From assembly GCA_003155695.1 (NCBI GenBank), contig PMDZ01000004.1:51257-109079 (forward strand): a DNA stretch of 57,823 bases, in the 5' to 3' direction. A program made the position numbers and the translations under genes. This document shows, in pieces, positions 1-57,823 of the stretch. This DNA is from Candidatus Nomurabacteria bacterium (GTDB lineage: Bacteria > Patescibacteriota > Minisyncoccia > Phycocordibacterales > UBA9973). Position 1 is the first letter of the stretch; every line of letters starts with the position of its first letter. The notes under the pieces were generated by a model that was not told the origin of the DNA, did no database searches, and was given only the letters and a program-made list of their open reading frames with translations.

Positions 1-22
1 TTTCGGAACGAGTTTCACTTTG

Positions 23-94
23 TGACCCTACCGGGAATCGAACCCGGATTACCGGCTTGAAAAGCCGATGTCCTAACCGTTAGACGATAAGGCC
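23..94 (-). tRNA. tRNA-Glu (anticodon UUC)
   Basis: Reverse complement folds as a 72-nt cloverleaf. Acceptor GGCCTTA/TAGGGTC (two G-U pairs), D stem GTCT/GGAC, anticodon stem TCGGC/GCCGG with loop TTTTCAA (TTC), 4-nt variable loop, T arm CCGGG-TTCGATT-CCCGG. CCA is not encoded. Confidence 0.85.
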
Positions 95-196
95 GATGTA
101 ATTACTAATTAATAATTACTAATTAACAATTAAGAATCATGAAGTATTATAGACCCAAAATAATTAGTAATCAGTAATTGGTAATTATTAATTATC
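95..196. repeat. AT-rich TAATTA-type palindromic element (copy 1 of 3)
   Basis: Arms GATGTAATTACTAATTAATAATTAC... and ...GGTAATTATTAATTATC are inverted relative to each other. Shares ACAATTAAGAAT and GTAATTAYTAATTAA with the copies at 12783-12900 and 57473-57576. Confidence 0.5.
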
Positions 197-280
197 AATG
201 AGTATAGCATTTTTGATTGAAAAATCAAATTTTTGGGAATAAAGTGCTTAAAATATAAGGATTTTGTTCAGAATTTGAGC

Positions 281-11654: not shown

Positions 11655-12782
11655 ATGAAAAAAGAAAATCAAGATGTTATAGATAGCATTGCCGAACACG
11701 CAAAAATGGAGCTTTCCAGTGTCGGCAAAATGCTCGATAAAGCTGAGGTTCCCCCACAAGTGGATGCACTTGTAGAAGGCCCGGTAATTTCCATTCAGAA
11801 GTCATCTGTTTACATTGACCTTACTCCATTCGGGACAGGTATAATTTATGGACGAGAATTTATAAATGCCAAGGACATAATCAAGAAAATAAATATCGGT
11901 GATGTTGTTAAGGCAAAAGTAGTTGAAACCGATAACGAAGATGGTTATATTGAATTATCTTTGAAGGAAGCAAAGCAAGCTCTCATTTGGAGTGAAGCCG
12001 AGAAAGCCATTAAGTCAAAAATGACTCTTGAACTCACTATTAAAGAAGCCAACAAAGGTGGACTTATATTGGAGTGGCAAGGCATCCAAGGATTCCTTCC
12101 GGCTTCTCAACTTAAGAGTGAGCACTATCCACGAGTCGAAGATTCTGACAAGGATAAAATATTAAAAGCCCTAAAATTATTAATCGGCAAACGCATAAAC
12201 GTCGTGATGATTTCCGCTCTACCTAAAGAAGGCAAACTAATTTTTTCGGAAAAGGATAATAATCCGGAAGAGAGACGCGAGATTGTCGGCAAATATGCCG
12301 TCGGTGATGAGCTCGAATGTATCGTTGCCGGTATTGTTGACTTCGGTGTCTTTTTAAAGTTGGAAGAAGGTCTTGAAGGGTTAGTTCACATTTCCGAGAT
12401 TGATTGGGGCTTAGTGGAAGACCCACGAACAATGTTCAAGGTTGGCGACAAAGTCAAAGCAAAAATTATTGAAATAAAAGACGGTAAAATTTCTCTCTCA
12501 ATCAAAGCTCTCAAAGAAAATCCATGGAATGAGTTTGAAAACGTTCTTAAGAAAGGAGATATCGTTTCGGGAGTCGTGATTAAATTCAATAAACACGGAG
12601 CTCTTGTCTCTATAAAACAGGGTGTCGCCGGTTTGGTTCACAATTCGGGATTCGGTTCTGAAGAGAAATTAAAGAAGACTTTGGAATTGGGCAAGAAATA
12701 TAATTTCCAAGTGACTTTATTTGAAGCCAAGGACCAAAGAATGACGCTTGTTTACTTGGATGAAACCAAGAAAACCGAATAG
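11655..12782 (+). CDS. rpsA: 30S ribosomal protein S1 (four S1 domains)
   Basis: Repeated S1 motifs (GDVVKAKVVE..., GKRINVVMIS..., GDELECIVAGIVDFGVFLKL, GDIVSGVVIKFNKHGALVSI). Start moved to ATG 11655 because the longer ORF would run through the promoter and terminator hairpin. Confidence 0.85.
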   Translation: MKKENQDVIDSIAEHAKMELSSVGKMLDKAEVPPQVDALVEGPVISIQKSSVYIDLTPFGTGIIYGREFINAKDIIKKINIGDVVKAKVVETDNEDGYIELSLKEAKQALIWSEAEKAIKSKMTLELTIKEANKGGLILEWQGIQGFLPASQLKSEHYPRVEDSDKDKILKALKLLIGKRINVVMISALPKEGKLIFSEKDNNPEERREIVGKYAVGDELECIVAGIVDFGVFLKLEEGLEGLVHISEIDWGLVEDPRTMFKVGDKVKAKIIEIKDGKISLSIKALKENPWNEFENVLKKGDIVSGVVIKFNKHGALVSIKQGVAGLVHNSGFGSEEKLKKTLELGKKYNFQVTLFEAKDQRMTLVYLDETKKTE

Positions 12783-12900
12783 TAATTACTAATTAAAAAT
12801 TACCGATTACCAGTTAAATAGCCCAAACTAACGAAGTTAGTTTGGGCTATTTTTGATTTTGGATTTAATTATTAATTCTTAATTAGTAATTATTAATTAT
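12783..12900. repeat. AT-rich TAATTA-type palindromic element (copy 2 of 3) filling the rpsA/pth intergenic region
   Basis: Left arm GTAATTACTAATTAAAAATTACC. Right arm TTAATTCTTAATTAGTAATTATTAATTAT (contains the reverse complement TTAATTAGTAATTA of the left arm). Confidence 0.5.
12820..12853. terminator. bidirectional intrinsic terminator between convergent rpsA and pth
   Basis: 13-bp stem AGCCCAAACTAAC / GTTAGTTTGGGCT with a GAA loop, then a T-run. Confidence 0.8.
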
Positions 12901-56280: not shown

Positions 56281-56287
56281 ATAATAT

Positions 56288-56593
56288 TGATTTGTATCTA
56301 TAAGCCGAGTTCTGTCCTCCGGCCGAAGCCGGAGCAATAGATATTTATCTAGGCCCGACGTTACCGTCAGGCTCAAGCGACTCAGACTCCCTAAAAAATA
56401 GAGAGAATACGGTCTTGCACACACGTAAGTATTTTGCCGTTTCACCCGAACTAAATCGGTTCGTCACTGTTCGCAACTCGGCGATTGCTCGCGATGGGTA
56501 TTACCCACTACGCTTGTCCGACCTAAGTCGAACTATGTGCTCGGACTTTCCTCACCCAGCCATTAGACTGGGCGCATCCATCCAATACAAACC
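56288..56593 (-). ncRNA. rnpB: RNase P RNA (bacterial, compact, about 305 nt)
   Basis: On the minus strand: GAGGAAAGTCCGAGC (56553-56539), GGGTGAAACGGC (about 56450-56439), ACAGAACTCGGCTTATA (about 56315-56299). P1 pairing is TTTGTAT (56591-56585) with ATACAAA (56297-56291). Confidence 0.85.
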
Positions 56594-56903: not shown

Positions 56904-57106
56904 TATCTTTTTTATTTAAATAAGTATTCATTCATAATCGAGCAATAAAATATTTTTTCTATTGTTCCGTCCTATCAGGTCTTTCCCTTGTTGTCAGATT
57001 TCTTTTAGAACAAAAATCATTGTTCATTATGTGCTCAATTGAGGCACATAATATCGACTCAATAAGACCGTCTTACTCAATAAATTGAGGTAAGAGATCG
57101 GTTTCA

Positions 57107-57823
57107 AATTGAATTATTCCACGAACAGCTTCCGCTACCCGTGCCTTGTTACGACTTATTCCCTGTTACCGAGCTTACTGTAGGCCCTCCGTATGGAGAG
57201 ATTTCGAGCACTCCCGGCTCCCTTGAATTGACGGGCGGTGAGTACAAGACTTGAGAACGTATTCACCGCGGTATATATGACCCGCGATTACTAGTAATTC
57301 CAACTTCATGGGGTCGAGTTGCAGCCCCCAATCCGAACTGGCGCAATTTTTATTAGGATTCGCTCAGGGTTACCCCGTCGCTGCCCGTTGTAATTGCGAT
57401 TGTATTATGTGTGTAGCCCAAGGTATCAAGGGTCATGCTGACCTGGCGTCATCCTCCCCTTCCTCCCCGACCAAAAAATACAATTAAGAATTAATAATTA
57501 ATAATTAATAATTTGAAATACATTGCTGAATTTCTCATTCTTAATTCTTAATTCTTAATTAATAATTACATCCTTGGGTCGGGGCAGTCTCGTGTGACAC
57601 TTATAACACACAACGAGGGTTGCGTTCGTTACCCCACTTAAGGGAACAATTCAAACCACGAACTGACGACGGCCATGCAACACCTGTCAACTAGTCTTGC
57701 GAGGGCTCTAGTTTCTTAGAGCTTTCACGTTGATTTCTAACCTTGGTAAGGTTCTTCGTTTATCATCGAATTAAACCACATAATCCACTACTTGTGCAAG
57801 TCCCCGTCTATTCCTTTGAGTTT
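57107..57823 (-). rRNA. rrs: 16S rRNA, 3' portion (E. coli ~907 to 3' end), runs off the window
   Basis: Reverse complement contains AAACTCAAAGGAATAGACGGGGAC, GCATGGCCGTCGTCAG, AACGAACGCAACCC, GAGGAAGGGGAGGATGACGCCAGGTCA, GTACTCACCGCCCGTCA and AAGTCGTAACAAGG. Divergent at universal primer sites, as in CPR. Confidence 0.92.
57473..57576 (-). repeat. 104-nt A+T-rich insertion in 16S helix 40 (AT-rich TAATTA-type element, copy 3 of 3)
   Basis: Flanked by the helix-40 stem CCCCGACC (57465-57472) / GGTCGGGG (57577-57584). E. coli has only CCAGTGATAAACTGG at this position. Confidence 0.75.

Follow-up and report, generated by a model that had tools for sequence, protein, structure and literature searches.

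We find that in this Candidatus Nomurabacteria genome (G000) the apical loop of 16S rRNA helix 40 is replaced by an ORF-less hairpin of 104 nt, and that this insert is one member of a family of heptamer-repeat sequences dispersed through the genome. The insert, a set of intergenic hairpins and the arms flanking the single 23S_rRNA_IVP (PF05635) gene make up one heptamer family in G000, which is new for this genome. Helix 40 itself is an insertion hot spot in the order. Our preferred reading, which we hold with modest confidence, is that the insert is an ORF-less palindromic element of the intervening sequence (IVS) type, cut out of the rRNA by RNase III. The kind of insert (rRNA IVS or short CPR rRNA insert) is already known; the site and the order-wide hot spot are new. 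Coordinates without a contig name refer to the window, the whole stretch of 57,823 nt that was analysed.

Alignment to the bacterial SSU model (cmscan) places 109 nt at the helix-40 apex in place of 4 loop positions (model ~1157-1160), a site at which E. coli has a 5-bp stem and a pentaloop. As in rRNA IVSs, alignment and folding reveal an extra stem-loop at the tip of a peripheral rRNA helix, where it substitutes for the apical loop. The original prediction had placed the insert and its bracketing stems exactly, without stating that the gene lies on the minus strand (Table 1). The base stem flanking the insert comprises 8 bp of G+C and covaries among relatives (e.g. CCCAGCCC/GGGCUGGG and CCCCCGC/GCGGGGG). 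With an A+T content of 84.6%, against 62.9% for the window, the insert is indeed A+T-rich, and the earlier wording "nearly pure A+T" slightly overstates this. The long imperfect A-U hairpin that had been proposed is borne out by folding: the minimum is a single long hairpin with an MFE of -41.7 kcal/mol, compared with -21.8 +/- 3.4 kcal/mol for 200 shuffles (z = -5.8). Both arms are tandem arrays of the heptamer TAATTAN, the core of which is its own reverse complement, and consequently the hairpin is built of 6-bp blocks with a single mismatch at each 7th base. A scan of the 104 nt found no ORF of at least 20 aa. No Rfam family came near threshold for the insert and none matched even at E <= 1, apart from plant miRNA-precursor models, which lie far below threshold and were rejected as generic hairpins. 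The absence of any Rfam intron match at E <= 1 and of an ORF speaks against a group I or group II intron, in line with the earlier remark that its small size leaves no room for an ORF or a group I core.

Table 1. Coordinates of the helix-40 insert, its host gene and related features in G000. Positions refer to the window unless a contig is named; arm and stem halves are given in RNA sense.
Feature	Position	Strand	Details
16S rRNA gene, 3' domain	57107-57823	-	model positions 897-1533; cmscan RF00177, 504 bits, E 4e-157
Insert replacing helix-40 loop	57473-57576	-	104 nt, ORF-less; cmscan and fold
Helix-40 base stem, 5' half	57577-57584	-	pairs with 57465-57472
Helix-40 base stem, 3' half	57465-57472	-	pairs with 57577-57584
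Insert, 5' arm	57537-57569	-	~4.5 heptamer units, AAUUAAG / UAAUUAU type; repeat families D2, I6
Hairpin apex, non-repeat	57514-57536	-	sequence and fold; partly alignable with apex of relatives' 23S copies
Insert, 3' arm	57482-57513	-	~4.5 heptamer units; repeat families I1, I6, I23
Same-family heptamer hairpin	98-202		just upstream of tRNA-Glu; repeat families D2, I2, I15; fold z = -3.1
tRNA-Glu	22-94	-	heptamer hairpin 98-202 immediately upstream
Same-family arms around terminator hairpin	12780-12900		between convergent genes; repeat families I1, I3, I9; z = -9.1
PF05635 (23S_rRNA_IVP) gene	C5:26334-26648		four-helix-bundle, E 1.3e-28, intact; only one in G000

The 16S gene is split over contigs: the 3' 637 model positions of the bacterial 16S are present in the window, where the match is cut at the window end (the end of contig C11), the 5' piece (first 307 model positions) opens contig C8, and the part between them is missing from the assembly. 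Such splitting would fit a chimeric assembly or a 16S pseudogene in decay, two outcomes that the original prediction had itself raised. However, an 843-nt contig from another sample, a soil run, has 14 mismatches to the two flanks (~98% identity) and spans both junctions. This contig is without the 70 central bases 57487-57556 and carries 8 other bases there, giving a hairpin 62 nt shorter that misses the apex and inner repeats of the insert. Since both junctions are spanned and the length differs, the insert is no chimera and is length-variable. Near-complete relatives (4-5 contigs) also have inserts at the helix-40 site, and the 3' domain, which keeps all conserved helices at its 504-bit score, is single-copy by blastn in this 773-kb, 95.7%-complete, Paceibacteria-type genome. 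We therefore regard a chimera or pseudogene as extremely improbable. Copy number and hairpin length do change between near-identical strains.

We note several further features of these rRNA genes. Beyond helix 45, the 16S 3' tail (57107-57125, minus strand) reads GGAAUAAUUCAAUUUGAA, with the usual anti-Shine-Dalgarno CCUCC absent, and the tail is alike or similar in all ~29 relatives of the order (loci L001-L030). Past the 3' end, at ~57020-57060, lies a hairpin of the type GAGTCGATATTGTGT..CTCAATTGA..ACACA that is conserved in most genus members (L001-L016) and may be a processing stem. An RNase P RNA (class A, 124 bits) at 56285-56593 on the minus strand, ~500 nt downstream of the 16S, occupies the usual tRNA/23S place; the 23S 3' end and 5S are found on contig C1, apart from the 16S, and the rRNA genes are therefore unlinked. 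Helix 6 of the 16S, on the C8 5' piece (L071 197-250), has a 39-nt extension without TAATTAN repeats.

A genome search for three TAATTAN units, with up to 2 mismatches, returned 28 loci in the 773 kb of G000, compared with 0-1 in five shuffled genomes. Of these, 24 fall outside long ORFs, in most cases directly next to a stop codon. Two are the intergenic elements at 98-202 and 12780-12900, which had been assigned to the same repeat family as the insert; shared repeat families D2, I1, I3 and I4 confirm that assignment. At the orthologous terminator site downstream of a 415-aa gene, arms are present in G000 and G020, and the terminator is bare in G004, G005, G023, G026 and G035. The arms were therefore gained or lost within the genus. 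Dispersed copies and presence/absence polymorphism (the site is filled in two genus members and empty in five) are traits of MITE/REP-type elements; alignments of the terminator site and of the rRNA copies, inspected by eye, showed neither fixed ends nor target-site duplications.

Helix-40 length, taken as the segment between conserved flanks, was read in 28 genomes of the order, which answers the earlier suggestion to compare the 16S of relatives for presence or absence. The helix is extended in 25 of them and reaches 84-166 nt in 11. None of the 13 genomes of the own genus has a canonical helix 40: three versions are long (84-128 nt) and ten are medium (42-62 nt). The 15 genomes from 15 other families comprise eight long (116-166 nt), four medium (44-47 nt) and three canonical (12-13 nt) versions. 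Heptamer arrays occur on both arms in 9/11 long versions, with units that vary by lineage and are mostly not TAATTAN, and all eight long versions of relatives that were folded form strong hairpins (z = -8 to -12). Within the genus the segment thus ranges between 42 and 128 nt and differs in content, and this, like the shorter hairpin of the ~98% identical strain, is the sporadic presence known from IVSs. In other families the inserts are modular, with a heptamer hairpin between small G+C hairpins that carry GNRA- or UUCG-type loops. In six such inserts (L005, L015, L017, L018, L020, L021) one 7-8-nt stem word occurs three times, so that alternative pairings are possible. The sequencing runs that a search with the sequence returned contained 0.4-0.6 of the sampled words, and the three of them that are RNA or possibly RNA yielded short rRNA contigs from other taxa, with no coverage of the insert. 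In a wastewater run that is possibly RNA, the 36-nt helix-40 extension of a relative is covered to a depth of ~320, a signal too weak to build on.

In those members of the genus whose extension is short, each arm holds a single TAATTA unit, and the surrounding sequence is homologous to the outer portion of the G000 insert; some of the length variation is therefore probably due to slippage. Taken further, this could dispense with a mobile element altogether: slippage during replication would have lengthened an ancestral short extension with one TAATTA per arm at its present position, the two arms acquiring compensating changes, and the other loci would be convergent uses of an A+T-rich self-complementary motif. 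Consistent with this are the graded series from one unit per arm (G034, G023, G016, G010) through about two (the soil-run strain) to four to five (G000), the self-complementarity of TAATTA, by which any two arrays can pair, and the different heptamer copy numbers among Coxiella strains (PMC4990558). However, the non-repeat apex cannot come from slippage, the genomic loci far outnumber those expected by chance, and arms surround a pre-existing terminator in just two of the seven orthologous sites. In addition, there are other genomes with non-palindromic helix-40 heptamers that also match the arms of IVP cassettes.

Copies in other RNA genes weigh further against growth in place. The 23S of G000 itself is unassembled, and the 23S copies are known from relatives: with the G000 insert as BLAST query, matches were recovered inside the 23S genes of genus members. 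G004 has a 119-nt copy at 23S model 583/584, the apex of helix 25 (cmscan), which is a classical IVS site, while the G000 copy lies in 16S helix 40. G024 has a 112-nt copy at 23S model 1763-1766, and G004 and G025 have further copies at 23S model ~284 and within the 3' half of the gene. Eight rRNA-borne copies from four genus members align to one shared architecture with 46 invariant columns. In fact, the G004 helix-25 and G024 copies are the same composite hairpin, flanked by identical G+C modules in two different 23S helices, and in-situ growth cannot explain these copies. We consequently judge slippage without a mobile element improbable. The G000 helix-40 copy shares the heptamer hairpin and a weakly similar apex, without the G+C mini-hairpin modules of the 23S copies. 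BLAST identity among the copies is 74-82%, dominated by repeats and found in several alignment registers, so that the homology of the G000 copy at the level of the element rests mainly on the heptamers and the weakly similar apex. Taken with the dispersed loci and the intergenic gain or loss, these same-family rRNA hairpins support invasion by a small palindromic element, as the original prediction had proposed. That part of it held; the 7-base periodicity, the IVP-gene link and the order-wide extension of helix 40 had escaped it.

Same-family hairpins are also found 15-30 nt upstream of tmRNA in G020 (L081 436-513) and G025 (L084 354-428). Together with the copy upstream of tRNA-Glu, these hint that the family may favour the region 5' of stable-RNA genes. 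Group I introns are present in the 23S genes of G020 and G024 (L073 1903-2144; L076 1608-1817), each of which also has, at model ~284, a ~118-nt insert of non-heptamer type; the G024 23S also has a ~45-nt extension of helix 25.

The sole PF05635 gene of G000 is bracketed by inverted arrays of the heptamers found in the helix-40 insert. Through these shared arms the insert, itself ORF-less, is associated with the S23p / 23S_rRNA_IVP family. Seven related genomes contain 19 PF05635 genes, most of them, as judged by eye, likewise bracketed by complementary short-period arrays. In G000, G039, G051 and G053 the helix-40 heptamers match the arms of an IVP cassette in that genome, as they loosely do in G045; comparison in G020 and G054 gave no match. 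Across genomes, the sharing between helix 40 and IVP arms gives a diagonal sum of 84, reached or exceeded in 137/5040 permutations. In a k-mer matrix, different genomes have a few heptamer types in common (TAATTAN, AAAGTTN, GAATNAN, AGCTNNN), and the pairing of helix 40 and IVP arms is therefore not strictly genome-specific. The idea that each genome has its own heptamer was rejected, since by BLAST the G020 and G045 inserts have few or no further copies in their own genome and have copies in other genomes.

Two observations concern the cassettes themselves. One of the 19 genes, in G053, is an intact PF05635 ORF within helix 6 of the 16S, with inverted CTGGAAN heptamer arrays on either side (L040, G053:C1:3947-4255); here a 16S gene contains an IVS that bears an ORF. 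Five genomes, each from a different family, have an IVP cassette directly beside the start of the same PrgI-family gene (PF12666), as at C5:25855-26701 in G000 (PF12666 E 6e-10) and in L032, L037, L038 and L042, and the arm heptamers of these cassettes are completely different between genomes.

IVSs of bacterial rRNA are known from 23S helices 9, 25 and 45 of Salmonella, Leptospira and Coxiella, 16S cases being rarer, and in the classical case RNase III removes them from the precursor without re-ligation, leaving a fragmented rRNA. The G000 insert resembles them as a long stem-loop in the loop of a peripheral rRNA helix, sporadic among close relatives, associated with an S23p/23S_rRNA_IVP four-helix-bundle gene and with a same-family copy in 23S helix 25 of a relative. 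It differs in its site, 16S helix 40, and in that its family also has members between genes and around terminators. A published parallel is the Coxiella IVS (PMC4990558): its S23p ORF is preceded by tandem heptamers whose copy number varies, and the first repeat is where RNase III cuts. The arms of the G000 insert likewise carry tandem heptamers of variable copy number.

Short inserts in CPR rRNA genes have been described before. Tsurumaki et al. 2024 (PMC11270868) report IVP ORFs, including some in 16S inserts, and many short ORF-less non-intron inserts, which they suggest to be IVSs and leave as "uncharacterized"; short non-intron "insertion sequences" in CPR rRNA are attributed there also to Brown et al. 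2015. The G000 insert resembles the short ones in its length (~100 bp), its position at the top of a stem-loop of a CPR 16S, and in having no intron model and no ORF, and is unlike them in being tied to a heptamer family, to the arms of IVP cassettes and to a helix-40 hot spot that spans the order. Inserts at 16S helix 40 were not found in the literature searched, with the proviso that the numbered sites on the maps of PMC11270868 may include helix 40.

REP/MITE-like and Rickettsia palindromic elements are also short hairpin repeats, mostly intergenic, whose presence varies between relatives. In contrast to them, the arms here are tandem 7-base arrays instead of a fixed consensus, and the RNA-gene insertions lie at helix apices. 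A literature search for heptanucleotide-repeat hairpins gave nothing pertinent. Such hairpins occur in cyanobacteria as STRR repeats and in the P6b stem of the Nostoc tRNA-Leu intron, where 7-base tandem repeats on both arms vary in copy number between strains. They are alike in placing 7-base arms inside a structured RNA gene and unlike in phylum and host RNA, and we know of no link between them and an IVP gene.

We can thus outline how the IVS-type element may behave. A gene-less palindromic element with tandem TAATTAN arms would have inserted into the apical loop of helix 40 or expanded there. Transcribed within the pre-16S rRNA, it would form an A-U duplex of ~45 bp upon the 8-bp G+C stem. 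G000 has an RNase III gene (rnc, C10:27166-27558), and by analogy with classical bacterial IVSs the enzyme most likely cuts out the element without re-ligation, an outcome we rate as slightly favoured. The 16S rRNA would then carry a nick in helix 40, its two pieces kept together by the base stem and by the head domain. For the ribosome, the element is probably neutral or selfish. Several findings run against this reading: the mismatch at each 7th base pair could weaken RNase III cutting, the G000 copy is without the G+C modules of the 23S copies, in-situ repeat growth from the one-unit-per-arm state of genus relatives could give much of the length, and the heptamer sharing between helix 40 and IVP arms is not strictly genome-specific, as the permutations indicate.

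The same element may instead be retained in the mature 16S as an expansion segment off the 30S head, leaving the rRNA unfragmented. We consider this quite possible, if the less probable fate. The extension of helix 40 in most of the order points in this direction, as do the strong hairpins kept by the long versions and the periodic stem mismatches, which may blunt RNase III. Moreover, the medium versions of the ten genus members look too short for RNase III, which suggests that the helix-40 surface tolerates extra RNA. On the other hand, the links to IVSs, namely the arms shared with the IVP gene, the presence of copies in helix 25 and the Coxiella precedent in which RNase III cuts at heptamers (PMC4990558), argue for excision, and the fast length change between strains speaks against a functional ribosomal part.

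A broader and rather doubtful proposal is that the helix-40 hairpin is a non-autonomous copy of an undescribed mobile system, of which heptamer arms with a small four-helix-bundle (IVP, Avd-like) gene would be the autonomous form and which would place copies at the tips of existing hairpins. Its targets would include helices of rRNA, terminators and the regions 5' of tRNA and tmRNA genes. If true, such a system would explain the origin of bacterial rRNA intervening sequences and the helix-40 hot spot in the order.

In sum, these results give a concrete identity to one of the short "uncharacterized" inserts that are common in CPR 16S genes. For V7-V8-based surveys of Patescibacteria, such inserts mean amplicons of altered length, broken 16S assemblies and disturbed alignments. 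The shared heptamer arms connect rRNA inserts, dispersed intergenic hairpins and an unexplained family of IVP genes. If the hairpin is excised, these bacteria work with a nicked 16S rRNA; if it is retained, their 30S head bears an A-U spur of ~45 bp.
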